Shown here: positions 33,632 through 38,892 of the stretch, piece after piece
Layout of the letters: the number at the start of each line of letters is the position of its first letter
How positions within the stretch are numbered: the stretch's first letter is position 1
Source of the DNA: a virus
DNA length: 38,892 nucleotides
IMG/VR virus record: IMGVR_UViG_3300045988_147897
Direction: 5' to 3' (one strand)
Program-made: the position numbers and the translations under genes
The notes under the pieces: generated by a model
What the model saw: only the letters and a program-made list of their open reading frames with translations
What the model was told of the DNA's origin: nothing
The model's database searches: none

Positions 33632-33925
33632 TTAGGCGGCGAGCGGCTCGGCGGGCACCGTTGCGGCGATCTGCCTTGCAATCGCTTCGCGCGCGTCGAC
33701 TGCATTCACCGTCTCGTCTATTGCGGTGATGATCTTCGTCATCTGCGTGTGCTCTCTACTGAGCATTTTCTGTGCTGCGCGGATAGCCATTTCGTTGTGG
33801 AGGGCTTCGACCTTCTTGTGGTCGGCATCTGCACTGAGGCGTTCCTCCTTGAGGAAGGCGCGCAGCCAGCACAGGTCGTCGAGGGTGAGTTCAAGCGGGA
33901 TTAGCTGGTCCTTGCTGTCGGTCAT
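33632..33925 (-). CDS. hypothetical protein (97 aa)
   Basis: ATGA overlap with the stop of the surface-protein gene. Confidence 0.45.
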   Translation of the reverse strand: MTDSKDQLIPLELTLDDLCWLRAFLKEERLSADADHKKVEALHNEMAIRAAQKMLSREHTQMTKIITAIDETVNAVDAREAIARQIAATVPAEPLAA

Positions 33926-35190
33926 CGTCCGTTGCCTCCCAGGTAACGGCGGTTGATGACGTATCCGGCGGTGGCGAGGGCTGCGCCGATCAGGAAGGAC
34001 GCGAGGGCAACGCTGATGCCGTCGAGGGTGGCGCCGGTCTTGGCGAGCTGAGCCGCCGGGGCCGGGGTGGGCTGCACGTCGGCCTTCGGTTCGGGCTTCG
34101 GGGTCGCGTGCGTGGGTGCGGGCACCGGCTCGGTCGTCACGCGCGGCTCGGGAGTGGGGTCAGGCGTCGCCGCGGGTTCATCCGAGGGCGTCGGCGCGGG
34201 GGCCGGGTTGGTGGGGGTCGGCTCAGGAGTCGGCTCCGTGGAAGGCGTCGGGGCCGGGGTGGGCTTCATGGTTCCGTCGCCGTCCGTGCCACCGCTGGCC
34301 TTGATCGTCGCGGTGGCCTCAAGGCTCTGACCGTTGATCGTCGCGCGGTTGGTGTAGGTCGTCTGGCCCTCGACGGGCTGCGTCGCCTCCGGGAAGGTCA
34401 CGCACACGAGCGCGCCAGCCGGGGGCGTGAAGGTCAGCGTGTGCTTCGTGTCGTCCAGCTTGCCGTCCGTCCACGACGTCGTGTCCGGTGCCCACGTGGG
34501 GCCGGTCGAGCACTTCACCGCCGCGTGCAGGGCGTTGGTCTCATCCGTGATCGTGTACTCGGTGCCGGGGTCCACCTTCCACTGGATACCCCAGGAGATG
34601 GACCCATTGGCATCGGTCCACCCGTACTTCATGGTCTCGGGGCGCGCGTACTCGAAGTGCGCCGGGCCGGTGCAGTCGTTCGAGCAGGTGCCCGACCCGT
34701 CCTTATCGCCCCACACAAGCGTGCGGACGGTCTCACCATTCAGGGTGATCTGGGTGGACTCAGTGCCCACGGCCTTATCGGTGAGCTGCGCGCGGGCGTG
34801 GAACGTGCCGGACACGTCCTGCTTCGCCGCCCACGCTTCGGGCACGTCCGTCACCGTGCAGGTGAGCTGCGCCTGGTCGGCGGCGCACTCACCAATCCGG
34901 GTGCCGTCGTCGAGCGTGAACGGGAAGCCAGCCCTCCAGGCAAAGCCTCCGTCAACGCTGCCAACGGTGAGAGTCGAGCCGACCGTCAGGTGCGGGGTCT
35001 GCCAGGTGCCCTCAACGGTCACCTCGCTTGTGGTCTGGCGAGACGCACTGGTGGCCTTGGTGACCTGTGCGCTGATCGGCTCGGGCGTGGTGGGGGCCGC
35101 GAGCGCGGGGGCCGCGGCGGCTGCGACGGCGAGGCCTACGGTGAGGCCGAGGCCTGCGAGCGTGTACTTGGTGGTGTTCTTGGTGTTCAT
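33922..35190 (-). CDS. sortase-anchored cell-wall surface protein (signal peptide, beta-rich domain, Pro/Thr/Glu linker, LAKTG sorting motif, TM helix, RRYLGGNGR tail)
   Basis: N-terminus MNTKNTTKYTLAGLGLTVGLAVAAAAAPALA; C-terminus LAKTGATLDGISVALASFLIGAALATAGYVINRRYL is a class-E-sortase-type LAxTG cell-wall sorting signal. Confidence 0.7.
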   Translation of the reverse strand: MNTKNTTKYTLAGLGLTVGLAVAAAAAPALAAPTTPEPISAQVTKATSASRQTTSEVTVEGTWQTPHLTVGSTLTVGSVDGGFAWRAGFPFTLDDGTRIGECAADQAQLTCTVTDVPEAWAAKQDVSGTFHARAQLTDKAVGTESTQITLNGETVRTLVWGDKDGSGTCSNDCTGPAHFEYARPETMKYGWTDANGSISWGIQWKVDPGTEYTITDETNALHAAVKCSTGPTWAPDTTSWTDGKLDDTKHTLTFTPPAGALVCVTFPEATQPVEGQTTYTNRATINGQSLEATATIKASGGTDGDGTMKPTPAPTPSTEPTPEPTPTNPAPAPTPSDEPAATPDPTPEPRVTTEPVPAPTHATPKPEPKADVQPTPAPAAQLAKTGATLDGISVALASFLIGAALATAGYVINRRYLGGNGR

Positions 35191-35196
35191 CGTTAT

Positions 35197-35346
35197 TCAG
35201 TCCGTTTCGGTGTCGAGGGTGAGGTCAAGGGCGTTGATGCGGGCTTCCTGAATGAGGCGGCGGACGCGTTTGTCGGTGCAGGGGCGGGAGGGGTGCTTGA
35301 TCCACCAGGTGGTGGAGTGGAGCCATTCGACGGTTGCGAGGGTCAC
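35197..35346 (-). CDS. small ORF (49 aa; VTLATVEWLHSTTWWIKHPSRPCTDKRVRRLIQEARINALDLTLDTETD)
   Basis: GTG start overlapping the stop of 35343..35606 (GTGA); below the ORF-track cutoff. Confidence 0.3.
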   Translation of the reverse strand: MTLATVEWLHSTTWWIKHPSRPCTDKRVRRLIQEARINALDLTLDTETD

Positions 35347-35606
35347 TGGTGGGCCTCCTCGTCGGCTTCGGATTCAGCGGCGGCGGCCTGGTCGGCGTAT
35401 TCGGTGAGGGACTTCTCGAAAAGTGCGTTCATGACTTCGTCGGGGTGGTTGGCGACCATGAGGCCGGCGATCATGAGGGCGCGGATGCAGTCGGGTGCGA
35501 CGGCCCAGGCGAGGCGGTGGCGGACGCCGTGCCAGCCACGGTGCCCGAAGCGCAGGGCGTCGATGTCTCCCTGGTACTTGGCGGGGATCAGCATCTCGGT
35601 GGTCAC
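35343..35606 (-). CDS. hypothetical protein (87 aa)
   Basis: GTG start overlapping the upstream stop (GTGA); the rest of the 247-aa ORF-track ORF is Arg/Pro junk. Confidence 0.4.
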   Translation of the reverse strand: MTTEMLIPAKYQGDIDALRFGHRGWHGVRHRLAWAVAPDCIRALMIAGLMVANHPDEVMNALFEKSLTEYADQAAAAESEADEEAHQ

Positions 35607-35827
35607 TTGTCGGCCCCTTCCTGGTCGGCGTTGGTGAGGTCGATCAGGTTGCCGATCTCGTCGATGGTGAGGGTGAACGCGCCGATGATGTGGTCGCGGG
35701 CCTTGGGGTTGACGGCGGGCATGTCGAGCATCCTCATGGCGTCGAGGGTGCGGGCCTGTTCGCGGTGGAGGGCGGCGCGCACGAGGTGCGCCTGCCTTGG
35801 GGTTAGGGTGGTACCGTTGATCTGCAC
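35603..35827 (-). CDS. hypothetical protein (74 aa)
   Basis: GTG start with RBS AGGAAAGGA; the upstream part of the ORF-track ORF overlaps the xis-like gene in another frame. Confidence 0.4.
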   Translation of the reverse strand: MQINGTTLTPRQAHLVRAALHREQARTLDAMRMLDMPAVNPKARDHIIGAFTLTIDEIGNLIDLTNADQEGADK

Positions 35828-35898
35828 GATCTTGTCCTTTCCTGGGTCGTGCGTGGGTCTCGCGGGGTGGCAGCCTCGCGGGGCCCGTTCTTTTCTTG

Positions 35899-36162
35899 TT
35901 ACGCGGCCCGTTGGGCTGCGCGTGTGGCGGCTGCCTTGCGGGCTGCCTGCGAGCGGTTGCTGCGCGGGGTGATCCTGCCTTCGCCGGGTTCGGCGGCGTG
36001 CCGGGCTTGGTAGGCCTGCAGGGCTTCGGCGGGGATGCGCCACCCGGCCCGGCCCTTCTCGTTCCACGCGGCGATCTGCCCGTCACGGATGCGACGACGA
36101 ACGGCGGCGGGGGAGAGCCTGAGCATCTCGGCGGCCTCGGCGAGGGTGAGGATCTGAGTCAC
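35899..36162 (-). CDS. xis: excisionase / Xis-like HTH DNA-binding protein
   Basis: LTLAEAAEMLRLSPAAVRRRIRDGQIAAW...WRIPAEAL is a typical Xis/HTH_17 pattern; GTGA-coupled to cro. Confidence 0.6.
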   Translation of the reverse strand: MTQILTLAEAAEMLRLSPAAVRRRIRDGQIAAWNEKGRAGWRIPAEALQAYQARHAAEPGEGRITPRSNRSQAARKAAATRAAQRAA

Positions 36163-36386
36163 GCGGCCTCCTCGGTGCGGGCTTCTGCGTCTGCCATGAG
36201 GCGGCTCGGGGTCTCGTAGCCGAGGGCGGCGCTGATGGTGGCGATCTCGCCTAGCGTGAAGTCGCTCTCACCTGAGAGTTTGCGCGCAAGCGTTGTGCGC
36301 GAAAGTCCAACCTTCTTTGCGAACGCCCGAACCGAGCCGCCGTCATTGATGATTCGCAGTTTGAGCTCTGTTTGCAGCGCGTTCAT
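36159..36386 (-). CDS. Cro-like XRE-family HTH repressor (75 aa)
   Basis: HTH segment SVRAFAKKVGLSRTTLARKLSGE; ATG with GGAGGG RBS; divergent from the cI-like gene. Confidence 0.65.
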   Translation of the reverse strand: MNALQTELKLRIINDGGSVRAFAKKVGLSRTTLARKLSGESDFTLGEIATISAALGYETPSRLMADAEARTEEAA

Positions 36387-36407
36387 TGTGTCCCTCCTTT
36401 CCGGGGT

Positions 36408-36423
36408 GGCCCATTTGTGGGCC
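36408..36423. promoter_or_regulatory. operator O1: GGCCCATTTGTGGGCC (6-bp inverted half-sites, 4-bp spacer)
   Basis: Read directly; lies between the cro promoter -10 and the cro RBS. Confidence 0.55.
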
Positions 36424-36434
36424 GCATGTGAGTA

Positions 36435-36464
36435 ACCATAGCGGCCCAGAAGTGGGCCAGTCAA
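36435..36464 (-). promoter_or_regulatory. candidate cro promoter (PR-like): -35 TTGACT (36459..36464) and -10 TATGGT (36435..36440) on the minus strand, 18-bp spacer
   Basis: Sigma-70-like hexamers positioned about 50 nt upstream of the cro ATG. Confidence 0.4.
36443..36458. promoter_or_regulatory. operator O2: GGCCCAGAAGTGGGCC
   Basis: Fills the 18-bp spacer of the candidate cro promoter. Confidence 0.55.
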
Positions 36465-36505
36465 GTCGAAACGCGAAAGTTCCTGACGCAATGCCCCTAC
36501 CAGGT

Positions 36506-36521
36506 GGCCCGTTTCTGGTCC
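36506..36521. promoter_or_regulatory. operator O3 (imperfect): GGCCCGTTTCTGGTCC
   Basis: 2 mismatches to the half-site consensus; immediately upstream of a CATAAT -10-like hexamer for the cI-like gene. Confidence 0.4.
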
Positions 36522-36526
36522 ATAAT
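36521..36526 (+). promoter_or_regulatory. candidate -10 (CATAAT) of a PRM-like promoter that would give a leaderless or near-leaderless cI-like mRNA
   Basis: Hexamer ends 7 nt before the ATG at 36534. Confidence 0.3.
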
Positions 36527-36533
36527 TGGGCGC

Positions 36534-36803
36534 ATGAGTGTCACAGCATTTGAGCCGCATGACTACGAGCAGGCCGTCGCAGCCGCCCTACGTGCCGAAA
36601 TGGGCCGTCAAGACATATCGTTGCGCGCGCTTTCAACTCGGTCGGGAGTTTCGCGGTCACGGCTGATGCGAATTCTTGCTGAGGAGGGGCAGACCGCACC
36701 CATGACCGTCACAGTCCTAGAGGCGCTGTGCCGCGCGCTCGGCGTATCGATGACGCGTGTGCTCACTGATGCTGAAAACATGCTCACAACCGGGCGGGCA
36801 TAA
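36534..36803 (+). CDS. cI-like XRE-family HTH repressor (89 aa)
   Basis: HTH segment ISLRALSTRSGVSRSRLMRIL; divergent from cro; the ORF-track start at 36504 is GTG, so the start was moved to ATG. Confidence 0.6.
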   Translation: MSVTAFEPHDYEQAVAAALRAEMGRQDISLRALSTRSGVSRSRLMRILAEEGQTAPMTVTVLEALCRALGVSMTRVLTDAENMLTTGRA

Positions 36804-36807
36804 AGCA

Positions 36808-36838
36808 GACCCCACCAGGCAGGCGTCCTGGTGGGGTC
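36808..36838. terminator. hairpin GACCCCACCAGG-CAGGCGT-CCTGGTGGGGTC directly after the cI-like stop
   Basis: Perfect 12-bp stem 5 nt after TAA. Confidence 0.55.
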
Positions 36839-36927
36839 ACGCGCATTTAGAACGCCCGTGCGCGCGGGCAACCCAGGGGGCCGACCCTGGTTCAATATGT
36901 GTGCGCTTGAGGTGAGCATATCATGGC

Positions 36928-36943
36928 GGCCCACTAGTGGGCC
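36928..36943. promoter_or_regulatory. distal operator O4: GGCCCACTAGTGGGCC (perfect 16-bp palindrome) about 480 bp from O1/O2
   Basis: Same half-sites as O1/O2, in the non-coding region between the cI-like gene and int. Confidence 0.5.
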
Positions 36944-37127
36944 ATAAAAGACCGCCGCCCCTGCAATGACATTCCCGATCATGAGCAGAGGCGGCGGGGT
37001 TCGCGCGGATGTAGGCGGCGCGTGCGCCTGGGCCTCTCGCGTCGGGGCGCGGTTTACCCAAGAGAGAACCGCCCAGCTACCCGAAGATGCCGAGCGATCG
37101 GTTACGCCCATTCTACCAGTGGCCGCC

Positions 37128-37239
37128 CACATCTGCGTCCAGGCCGTGCCGCCGATATGAGAAGTCCCCACACGGAACCCGGTCGGGAAGTGTGGGGATA
37201 CTGCCCCTAGTTTACCTCGCGGCGGGCACATCTGCGTCC
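37128..37239. repeat. 13-bp direct repeat CACATCTGCGTCC (37128..37140 and 37227..37239) flanking hairpin TCCCCACAC-N15-GTGTGGGGA (37166..37198)
   Basis: Read directly in the 814-bp non-coding region upstream of int. Confidence 0.6.
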
Positions 37240-37320
37240 TCACACGGGGGGCGCGCGAGAGGCAAGGTGTCAAGACGATAGCCCGCGAGCGCGAGGCTAC
37301 GCGACCCCGATTTTAGGTGC

Positions 37321-37548
37321 GTGTCACGTGACACGCGCACAACGTCACGCAACGGTGTTTTACGCCTATTCAAGGCCAGTCAGAAAAACCGACTTTGCAT
37401 TGCAAAATCAAGACCTTTCCCCACCGTCGCACCGCAAACCCAAAAACACCCTGTGCAGAGACATGGTCCCCACACCCTCACAACAAAAACCGCACTATTC
37501 TGCGGTAAAGTGGGGATGTGGGGGCCGCGTGACACGCGCGCGTGACAC
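37321..37548. repeat. GTGACAC/GTGTCAC heptamer sites: palindrome GTGTCACGTGACAC (37321..37334) and GTGACACGCGCGCGTGACAC (37527..37548) bracketing a 190-bp A-rich region of about 50% GC
   Basis: Read directly; lies immediately upstream of the int start at 37618. Confidence 0.6.
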
Positions 37549-37617
37549 ACATGCTAATCAATCGGAGTACAATCAAGACCAAGCAAGACACGCAAAGATC
37601 AAGCAAGGCGGCGCAAC

Positions 37618-38781
37618 ATGGCATCTGTCAAGGCGGTAACGCACCGTGACGGCACCGTCGTGTACCGGGTCCGATACCGCGCGGGAGGCCGAAACCCAGT
37701 CGTGGAAACCTTCTATGATGCCGCGAGCGCCCAGCGCTTCGCCGACCTCGTCGATCGCATCGGCGGGGCAGCCGCCCGCGAGCTGCGCAGCCTCGACGAC
37801 CTGGCCGCCGCCGACACGCCCACCGTCGCCGCGGCGCTCGAACACCACCTCGAAGCCCTAGCCGCGTCCGCTACGCCTGGCACGATCAGTCGATACCGTC
37901 AGATCGTGCGCGACCGCATCGAACCCCACCTCGGCCTAATCCCCGTTGACATGCTCACCCGTCACACGGTCACGAAGTGGGTCGCCGACATTCGCCACAC
38001 GCCCGTCACGCGCGGGGCCACCGCCGGGCGGCCCCCGTCAGCAAAGACAATCCGCAACGCCCAAGCCCTCCTCAGTGCGGCCCTGCAACGCCTTGTCAAC
38101 GAGGATGTGATTCCCCGCAACGTTGCGAAGGCCGTCCCCCTCCCTAAGGACGCGACCGTTCGTGAGATGAGGTTCCTCACCCCCGACGAGTTCGCGCGCC
38201 TCCACGCACAGATCCCCGCCGATTACCAGCCGTTCGTCGCTGCCATGTATGGCCTCGGCCTACGCTTCGGCGAGGCAACCGCCCTCACGGTCGCCGACAT
38301 CGACCTCGACGTCGCCCAACCAGTCGTGCGAGTGAATAAGGCCTGGAAGGTTGGCGAACACGGGTCCCGCTATCTAGGGGCCCCGAAAACCAAGCGCGGG
38401 CGGCGAACAGTCACCATCCCCGCGCCCCTGGTCCCTGAGCTGCGCGGCGCGCTCGCGGGTAAGGCGGCGGATGAGCTGGTATTCACGGCGCGCAGGGGCG
38501 GGCCGATCACGTCGGCGCCGTTCCATAATCACATCTGGCGGCCTGCGTGTGATGCGGCTGGGTTGTCGCCGCGGCCGCGCGTGCATGATCTGCGTCATTC
38601 GCACGCGTCGGCGCTGATCGCTGCCGGCGTGCCTCTGCCTGTGGTGCAGCGCCGCATGGGCCACGAGTCGATTCAAATGACGGTTGACGTGTATGGGCAT
38701 CTAGCGCCCGATGCCTACGCGGGCGCTGCTGAGGCTATGAGCGTGGCCATGGGAGGGGTTGCGCCTCAACTCGGCATGTGA
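37618..38781 (+). CDS. int: tyrosine integrase (site-specific recombinase, phage integrase family)
   Basis: C-terminal catalytic context HDLRHSHASALIAAGVPLPVVQRRMGHESIQMTVDVYGHL (R...HxxR...Y); N-terminal SAM-like domain. Confidence 0.9.
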   Translation: MASVKAVTHRDGTVVYRVRYRAGGRNPVVETFYDAASAQRFADLVDRIGGAAARELRSLDDLAAADTPTVAAALEHHLEALAASATPGTISRYRQIVRDRIEPHLGLIPVDMLTRHTVTKWVADIRHTPVTRGATAGRPPSAKTIRNAQALLSAALQRLVNEDVIPRNVAKAVPLPKDATVREMRFLTPDEFARLHAQIPADYQPFVAAMYGLGLRFGEATALTVADIDLDVAQPVVRVNKAWKVGEHGSRYLGAPKTKRGRRTVTIPAPLVPELRGALAGKAADELVFTARRGGPITSAPFHNHIWRPACDAAGLSPRPRVHDLRHSHASALIAAGVPLPVVQRRMGHESIQMTVDVYGHLAPDAYAGAAEAMSVAMGGVAPQLGM

Positions 38782-38848
38782 TACACAGCTCCCTGATGTA
38801 GCTTGCGTGATACATTGTGCGCGGGCTATAGTTATTACATCGGGAGGG

Positions 38849-38892
38849 ACAAGCCCCCCGAACCTCAAAGAAGGAGAAAAACATGGACATGC
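38849..38892. repeat. 44-bp direct terminal repeat, right copy (identical to 1..44), 67 bp after the int stop
   Basis: Exact identity read directly. Confidence 0.9.

Follow-up and report, generated by a model that had tools for sequence, protein, structure and literature searches.

The viral record IMGVR_UViG_3300045988_147897 from IMG/VR (38,892 nt; hereafter the window) carries, between positions 36408 and 36943, a divergent pair of helix-turn-helix (HTH) genes, cI-like and cro-like, together with three exact copies and one weaker copy of the palindrome GGCCCA-N4-TGGGCC. These palindromes are very probably genuine immunity operators of the HTH pair. The whole composite, an immunity switch in which the distal fourth site also has a local promoter role, is our favored reading, held with less assurance. 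From sequence and comparison we document the sites and their conservation, the promoter hexamers, covariation in an RNA structure, and a swap of operators with immunity type. Related loci (n = 47; repressors 81–94% identical) came from scans of genome, viral and metagenome collections. The type-1 four-site set comprises 36 loci including the window, or 28 distinct sequences; a sister group of seven viral contigs (type 2: L052, L053, L059–L062, L065; for instance L062:9500–10100) was recovered by an RNA pattern scan.

A preliminary description of the region, made from the sequence alone, had proposed a genome-wide search for the palindrome. Exact matches occur at only three places in the window, 36408, 36443 and 36928, spanning 536 bp, and none arose in 100 dinucleotide-preserving shuffles; the 14-bp core finds the same three sites against 0.12 expected. 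Predicted operator O1 (GGCCCATTTGTGGGCC, 36408..36423, exact) lies at about +5 to +20 of a PR-like promoter, and O2 (GGCCCAGAAGTGGGCC, 36443..36458, exact) within the spacer of that promoter. O3 (GGCCCGTTTCTGGTCC, 36506..36521) is a weak predicted operator with two mismatches, at −28 to −13 of the repressor promoter. Predicted operator O4 (GGCCCACTAGTGGGCC, 36928..36943) is an exact match and a perfect palindrome at about −35 to −20 of a predicted RNA promoter; 520, 485 and 422 bp separate it from O1, O2 and O3, respectively. The geometry given earlier thus stands: O1 and O2 centers 35 bp apart, a 147-bp cro/cI gap, a weaker O3, and a perfect distal site. Outside the switch there are eight further two-mismatch matches against about five expected in the window, which is the chance level. 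An overlapping two-mismatch site at 36517 was rejected as chance, being unconserved; relatives carry CATAATGGGG there.

The cro-like gene (36159..36386, minus strand, 75 aa, HTH_3) is an open reading frame (ORF) with its ATG at 36386 and a Shine-Dalgarno sequence GGAGG at 36397..36393. It opens a leftward early operon, is followed there by a xis-like HTH_17 gene (35899–36162, minus strand), and is kept in all related loci. The cI-like immunity repressor gene (36534..36803, plus strand), recognized from its ORF, Pfam HTH matches and predicted fold, encodes 89 aa with a single XRE/HTH_3 domain, from an ATG at 36534 to a stop codon at 36801–36803. The PR-like promoter occupies 36435..36464 on the minus strand, with −35 TTGACT (36464..36459), an 18-bp spacer, −10 TATGGT (36440..36435) and an inferred start near 36428. 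This promoter toward cro, already recognized in the preliminary description, was the sole sigma-70-like match in a consensus promoter scan of 35800–37700. Its TATGGT is present in 28/28 distinct sequences, with AGTCAA and ACCATA (plus-strand reading) invariant. O2 had been said to fill the spacer exactly; it does lie inside, covering 16 of the 18 bases. The repressor gene has a PRM-like −10, CATAAT (36521..36526, plus strand), separated from the ATG by 7 nt (36527–36533) as originally described, though O3 overlaps the first base of CATAAT rather than abutting it. The hexamer (TCATAAT in five loci) keeps its 7-nt distance from the ATG while the intervening 7 nt vary, which fits the predicted leaderless repressor mRNA; the proposal of a leaderless start is supported by this conservation and by the same design in the heteroimmune group. 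The center of O2 (36450.5) precedes the inferred repressor start (36534) by 83.5 bp, too far for lambda-style PRM activation, for which the lambda middle operator sits near −42. A by-eye search of the switch for an actinobacterial LexA box saw none.

Conservation of the sites follows the pattern expected of operators. Relative to the repressor ATG, the 36 type-1 loci keep O1 at −126, O2 at −91, O3 at −28 and O4 at +393 to +398. Among distinct variants of O1, O2 and O4, 7 of 36 columns vary in the half-sites versus 8 of 12 in the spacers (Fisher p = 0.004). CCCA-N4-TGGG, the core, is invariant, and the N4 spacers are A/T-rich in a genome of ∼67% GC. O1 alone shows seven spacer variants, its half-sites unchanged except in two loci (L008 and L047). 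With positions kept, and spacers varying where half-sites do not, the palindromes behave as true operators. O3 is imperfect in every relative: its left half is GGCCCG in all 37 loci retaining O1 and O2, and its right half is TGGTCC, TGGGTC or, in L022, a perfect TGGGCC.

In the exceptional loci L008 and L047, all four half-sites of O1 and O2 have changed from GGCCCA to GCCCCA, forming perfect palindromes of 18–20 bp, with O3 and O4 unchanged. Their repressor (the same cI protein occurs in L051) is alone in having K4, F17 and V44, and Cro retains its usual HTH; a variant in specificity or affinity is one possible interpretation. A weak operator-like sequence, GGGTCACTGGTGGGCC with two mismatches, was also noted at 35340–35355; the L005 group has GGCTCATTTGTGGGCC there, with one mismatch. 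It sits at a constant −1194 to −1200 from the cI ATG, on the GTGA stop/start overlap of two early genes, and could be either chance coding conservation or a weak fifth site.

The sister group shares the xis gene, integrase region and RNA with type 1, but its repressor (ORF of 99 aa, ∼95 aa from the leaderless ATG) and cro (108 aa) are different. At all four equivalent positions these loci have GTCYC-N6-GRGAC instead. O2′ lies in the spacer of TTGCGT-17-CATACT with O1′ just downstream, and O3′ abuts the TAGAAT/TAAAAT-N7-ATG of the repressor. O4′, a perfect GTCCC-N6-GGGAC ∼476–519 bp off and downstream of the repressor gene, lies 5 nt upstream of TGYTACGAT. Since the four sites swap with repressor and cro while xis stays constant, this is the strongest computational evidence that they are immunity operators, O4 included. 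The argument for the type-2 operators rests on site position, not count. A looser RNA pattern scan of IMG/VR gave unrelated matches only, and no third immunity type.

It is very improbable that these sequences are not repressor operators but GC-rich palindromes arisen by chance, hairpins in RNA or DNA, or binding sites of some other protein, such as a host factor or the xis-like HTH_17 product. Each 16-mer can form a 6-bp hairpin, and the paired L008/L047 changes are compensatory in the hairpin sense too, but no exact site is expected by chance, and O2 occupies the untranscribed spacer of a promoter. In the heteroimmune group the sites have changed along with repressor and cro, xis being constant, and the type-2 arms (5 bp around an AT-rich spacer) are too weak for stable hairpins.

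O4 stands between a terminator and a candidate promoter, both leftward. Directly upstream is a predicted leftward intrinsic terminator (36944..36997, minus strand), with arms at 36952–36964 and 36985–36997 and a T-run at 36949..36944. Across relatives its stem has 52 G-U pairs when read as minus-strand RNA versus 14 as plus, and the minus-strand fold is the more stable in 18 of 28 sequences; we take the hairpin to be a leftward terminator on these two grounds. In one relative the inner stem and loop of this terminator (L040:1835–1880, equivalent to 36952–36997) are inverted compared with all other relatives, reading TGACATTCCCGATCA versus TGATCGGGAATGTCA, as though the segment had flipped between the inverted arms.

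On the other side of O4 is an extended −10 element, TGATATGCT (36915..36923, minus strand), with its TG at 36923..36922 and hexamer TATGCT at 36920..36915. The pattern TGnTAYGnT is kept in 32/32 distinct sequences of both immunity types as neighboring bases vary, and the linker from O4 to the TG is constant within each type (4 nt in type 1, 5 nt in type 2). The alignment of 36364–37053 contains just two conserved TANNNT hexamers, this one and the PR −10, and each is a minus-strand element beside a perfect operator. At about −35 to −20 of the predicted promoter, O4 would be in a repressing position. Candidate hexamers for a rightward promoter near O4 were rejected as wrongly spaced or unconserved.

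The promoter heads a predicted structured RNA of ∼110 nt (36798..36908, minus strand), the strand assigned from promoter position only. It has four helices: a closing helix (36906..36902 with 36845..36841), hairpin A (36890..36873), hairpin B (36869..36854), and a terminator hairpin common to the repressor gene and the convergent RNA (36808..36838). The T-run of the last (36807..36798, minus strand) overlaps the cI stop, and a terminator scan scores the hairpin on the minus strand only. O4 had been placed downstream of a "cI terminator"; it is indeed beyond this hairpin, but the hairpin has no T-run on the plus strand. Overlap of the RNA with cI amounts to the stop codon and the shared 31-nt hairpin only. 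The minimum free energy is −53.7 kcal/mol (z = −3.2). In an alignment of 19 sequences from both immunity types, 98.2% of cells in the consensus structure are paired, compared with 91.3% when shuffled (0/500 shuffles reached it), and slid-partner controls reached at most 50%. Compensatory changes occur in six pairs, including a closing-helix CG (12 sequences) that becomes UA (7), and in the terminator stem three pairs covary from one immunity type to the other. The long-range closing helix speaks for structure in RNA rather than DNA. The start predicted from the −10 (36908) falls 1–2 nt before the 5′ arm of the closing helix. Rfam 15 covariance models gave no match to 35000–38892 on either strand at E values up to 1.

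An O4-type site and the RNA occur together in all 44 RNA-bearing loci (36 type-1, seven type-2, and L051), and in all 44 the operator before the RNA promoter is of the type of the adjacent repressor. In L051 the RNA-adjacent operator matches the neighboring type-2 repressor and not the upstream type-1 gene. An invariant −10 at a constant 4 nt, heading a conserved structured RNA, is enough to explain O4.

Several points weigh against this account of O4 and its RNA. The evidence is comparative throughout, and from it we infer all protein binding, the transcription starts, and the strand and function of the RNA. The O4 promoter lacks a −35 element, and by a base-composition estimate TGNTANNNT alone would occur ∼19 times in the window by chance. 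Strand tests on the RNA do not favor the minus strand: one-sided wobble changes give five G-U pairs on the minus strand versus four on the plus, and in 30/32 sequences the RNA body is more stable as plus strand (mean difference 4.5 kcal/mol). The folding-energy test thus gives opposite answers, minus for the terminator upstream of O4 but plus for the RNA body. The type-2 terminator has no good U-tract on either strand, and the covariation comes from few independent events, namely two immunity types and two hairpin-A haplotypes. An RNAduplex window scan with the unpaired segments of the RNA found only the self-antisense locus and matches to non-coding strands, with no trans target. The type-2 operator pattern is short, and its count in L062 (five versus 3.2 expected at up to one mismatch) is not significant. 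The type-2 distal site GTCCC..GGGAC differs symmetrically from the PR sites, which are mostly GTCTC..GAGAC; with this, and with O1/O2 diverging from O3/O4 in L008 and L047, equal binding of all sites by one protein would not be guaranteed.

The preliminary description instead assigned O4 to long-range looping of the lambda OL-OR type. Here O4 would be a distal auxiliary operator, looping to O1–O3 through repressor oligomers as in lambda or at the flanking sites of phage 186, with the effect of tightening PR repression and helping to fill O3. A perfect operator does lie 422–520 bp from the switch in 36 loci, with an equivalent at 476–519 bp in the heteroimmune group. Small five-helix XRE proteins can bind cooperatively as pairs of dimers, as does the fold match C.Esp1396I, a tetramer on DNA. 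The lambda looping operators each also control a promoter, so looping would be compatible with a local role for O4. Nothing specific was found in favor of looping, however, and several observations count against it. The repressor is a single HTH domain of 89 aa without a C-terminal oligomerization and cleavage domain like that of lambda CI, and the distance to O4 is simply that of the repressor gene and RNA in between. The O3–O4 spacing of 421–426 bp drifts by 1–5 bp among relatives with no conservation of helical phase, an observation that is non-discriminating at such a distance. L042 retains the switch (O1–O3) and lacks both the RNA and O4; O4 tracks the RNA module, not the switch. The small repressor gp33(103) of mycobacteriophage BPs is a tetramer in solution, so that contacts of higher order are conceivable, but BPs gp33 reportedly did not bridge DNA molecules (PMC4557955). 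We consider looping rather unlikely as the main purpose of O4.

In another alternative the structured element is the 3′ untranslated region (UTR) of the repressor mRNA, on the plus strand, and repressor bound at O4 is a roadblock or insulator. Such a roadblock would stop cI read-through into the att/int module or shield the immunity region from incoming transcription. The better plus-strand fold noted above (z = −4.65 in the window) speaks for this, as does the position of O4 between the repressor gene and the att/int module; read-through is plausible, the post-cI hairpin having no plus-strand U-tract. Yet a 3′ UTR would leave unexplained both the invariant minus-strand TGnTAYGnT at 4–5 nt from an operator and the closing helix that begins at the start predicted from this −10, and two hairpins already flank the element. 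We regard it as improbable.

Returning to O4 as the operator of an RNA promoter, we propose the following scheme. A dimer of the 89-aa XRE-type repressor would bind the 16-bp palindromes, and the 75-aa Cro-like protein probably binds the same ones, given the similarity of its turn and recognition helix. With O2 in the PR spacer and O1 past the start, these two sites would jointly shut the leftward early operon (cro, xis and others). O3, over the leaderless repressor promoter, would provide either negative autoregulation or Cro's off-switch for the repressor. O4 would be the operator of a third promoter, the minus-strand extended −10, more than a looping partner. That promoter would drive the ∼110-nt RNA back toward the repressor gene to end at the shared hairpin, with a U-tract overlapping the cI stop codon. 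In a lysogen, repressor would silence PR and the RNA together, and its loss would turn both on. The RNA would most likely serve as antisense on the 3′ end of the repressor mRNA, or through read-through antisense transcription, reinforcing lytic commitment. We raise only tentatively the further idea that this repressor-gated small RNA acts against the repressor mRNA, by 3′-end pairing or by read-through antisense across cI, so as to form a positive-feedback arm that commits the phage to lysis, and a modular cassette. The cassette would consist of terminator, operator, extended −10 and RNA, keeping its RNA and exchanging its operator each time the immunity module is replaced.

Both regulators are small HTH proteins. 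The repressor matches Pfam HTH_31 (32.3 bits, cut-off 27), HTH_26 (31.6, cut-off 22) and HTH_3 (25.2, cut-off 23); the Pfam scan found HTH domains only, at residues 16–74, with no LexA/S24-like C-terminal domain. Its AlphaFold model (predicted local distance difference test score, pLDDT, 87.6) has five helices and nothing beyond. Lacking an S24 peptidase or oligomerization domain, the protein is unlikely to undergo RecA-type autocleavage. Its family is narrow, with four proteins at E ≤ 1e-10 in an exhaustive protein search, and the alignment behind the structure model is therefore shallow. The closest GenBank phage proteins, both 33% identical, are Rothia phage Spartoi gp38 and an Actinomyces phage xhp1 protein; the 'immunity repressor' label of the former comes from annotation, with no experimental backing found, and the latter is hypothetical. 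The cro-like protein exceeds the Pfam cut-offs for HTH_3 and HTH_26. Its best PHROG, phrog_4583 ('transcriptional repressor'), is also that of the cI-like protein. BLASTP of cI against Cro gave no alignment; by eye, and within the HTH only, cI residues 29–52 and Cro residues 18–41 share 10 of 24 positions, including G-x-S-R-x-x-L-x-R-x-L.

The best PDB folds in Foldseek for the repressor are ClgR (template modeling (TM) score 0.79, probability 1.00) and restriction-modification (R-M) controller proteins. These matches (5woq, 3f51/3f52, 3clc; TM ∼0.75–0.8) are small five-helix XRE dimers that read short palindromes, and with the C proteins a strong and a weak site next to each other make up a switch that depends on concentration. 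All are regulators of cells or of R-M systems at 12–30% identity, a likeness of fold and not evidence of shared function.

The overall plan resembles that of lambda CI/Cro. In both, two HTH genes diverge from a region with three related palindromic operators that overlap both promoters, one operator lying over the lytic promoter and a weaker one over the repressor promoter. The repressor mRNA would be leaderless, like that from lambda PRM, and an extra operator set lies several hundred bp off with its own promoter. Apart from the distant O2 (∼−83), which leaves no lambda-style PRM activation, the present switch differs from lambda in its 89-aa repressor devoid of S24 peptidase or oligomerization domain, and in a distal operator that would control a predicted short noncoding RNA (ncRNA) convergent on the repressor, not an early operon.

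The lambda OOP RNA, and likewise P22 sar, offers a parallel for the predicted RNA arm: these are short phage antisense RNAs, and the RNA here would resemble OOP in having a promoter of its own, a terminator hairpin and a course toward the 3′ end of a lysogeny regulator. The OOP promoter pO carries a LexA-binding site (PMC5869508), and the promoter here would likewise carry a repressor-binding site, the predicted O4. OOP overlaps 52 nt of cII coding sequence, whereas here only the hairpin and stop codon are shared; moreover the target would be the maintenance repressor, under control of the phage's own immunity operator.

Mycobacteriophage BPs, another actinobacteriophage, also uses a small repressor with copies of one palindrome at several promoters; five regions are bound by gp33(103), and four promoters are under its control (PMC4557955). 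The gene order is alike, leftward early genes followed by rightward repressor, att and integrase. Unlike in the integration-dependent immunity of BPs and Brujita, att here is outside the repressor gene, relatives aligning for ∼650 bp past its stop. Further differences from gp33 are the absence of an evident ssrA-like tail or any detectable sequence relationship, and the use of simple 16-bp inverted repeats where BPs has a 12-bp palindrome with a variable partner. The gene layout of the window recurs in Rothia phage Spartoi (L069, 24884–28120), where a leftward excise gene, a rightward gene for the 91-aa immunity repressor, a 467-bp gap and a tyrosine integrase gene follow one another, and a −10-like TATGGT precedes the repressor ATG by 6 nt. 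This suggests that leaderless small repressors are common in this phage neighborhood. No GGCCCA-type palindromes and no RNA counterpart were seen in the Spartoi region.

Natural deletions ending in the operators, at positions equivalent to 36408–36521, were found among relatives. One of 35 bp, an O1–O2 fusion (L019, L020), has lost the PR −10. Another of 98 bp, an O1–O3 fusion (L018, L024, L025, L028–L030, L043, L044, L051), has lost PR and O2; the latter variants would be products of O1 × O3 recombination. By sequence, elements with such operator fusions look decayed. In L043, cro carries a frameshift, cI is followed by a tandem pair of additional small HTH genes, and the integrase is a different one, encoded on the opposite strand.

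By our reading, the window is the ∼39-kb genome of a temperate siphophage with nearly every gene on the minus strand. It reads as an uncultured Actinomyces-type temperate phage, its host side among Actinomyces-like oral bacteria. The close relative L001 comes from a genome bin labeled uncultured Actinomyces, and the portal protein is actinophage-like (45% identity to that of Arthrobacter phage Hum25). A DNA-level search of GenBank phages with the 1.9-kb region gave no match, and a tRNA scan of the window found none. A tyrosine integrase gene (37618–38781, plus strand; Pfam Phage_integrase, 2e-23) lies at the right end. Relatives align through the cI stop, the RNA and O4, and diverge only near 37450, ∼650 bp past the stop, where they split into alternative att/int modules. 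Direct and inverted repeats at 37107–37239 and 37317–37551 flank this point (CACATCTGCGTCC twice; GTGACACGCGC, partly palindromic, three times). These are probably integrase arm sites and attP. L004-type loci have a tRNA 3′-end-like GGGGGGTTCGATTCCCCCC at the divergence point, where ARAGORN detected no tRNA gene. Within the early leftward operon, the product of 33922–35190 (minus strand) has 422 aa and combines a signal peptide with a proline/threonine-rich stalk and the sortase motif LAKTG; it may be a surface protein for lysogenic conversion or exclusion.

To our knowledge, no immunity switch of an Actinomyces or other oral actinobacterial phage has been characterized. The one described here belongs overall to a known kind; what is unusual is the RNA arm, which the repressor would gate. 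With its 16-bp operator, 89-aa and 75-aa proteins, and a heteroimmune partner built on the same plan, it makes a compact study system. The heteroimmune partner and the operator-to-operator deletions that remove the lytic promoter are ready controls for specificity and loss of function, and the operator/repressor pairs could serve as orthogonal regulatory parts in high-GC Gram-positive hosts. Should the RNA under O4 control prove real, here would be a maintenance repressor that directly represses an ncRNA aimed at its own gene, an arrangement that we know of in no CI-type switch.

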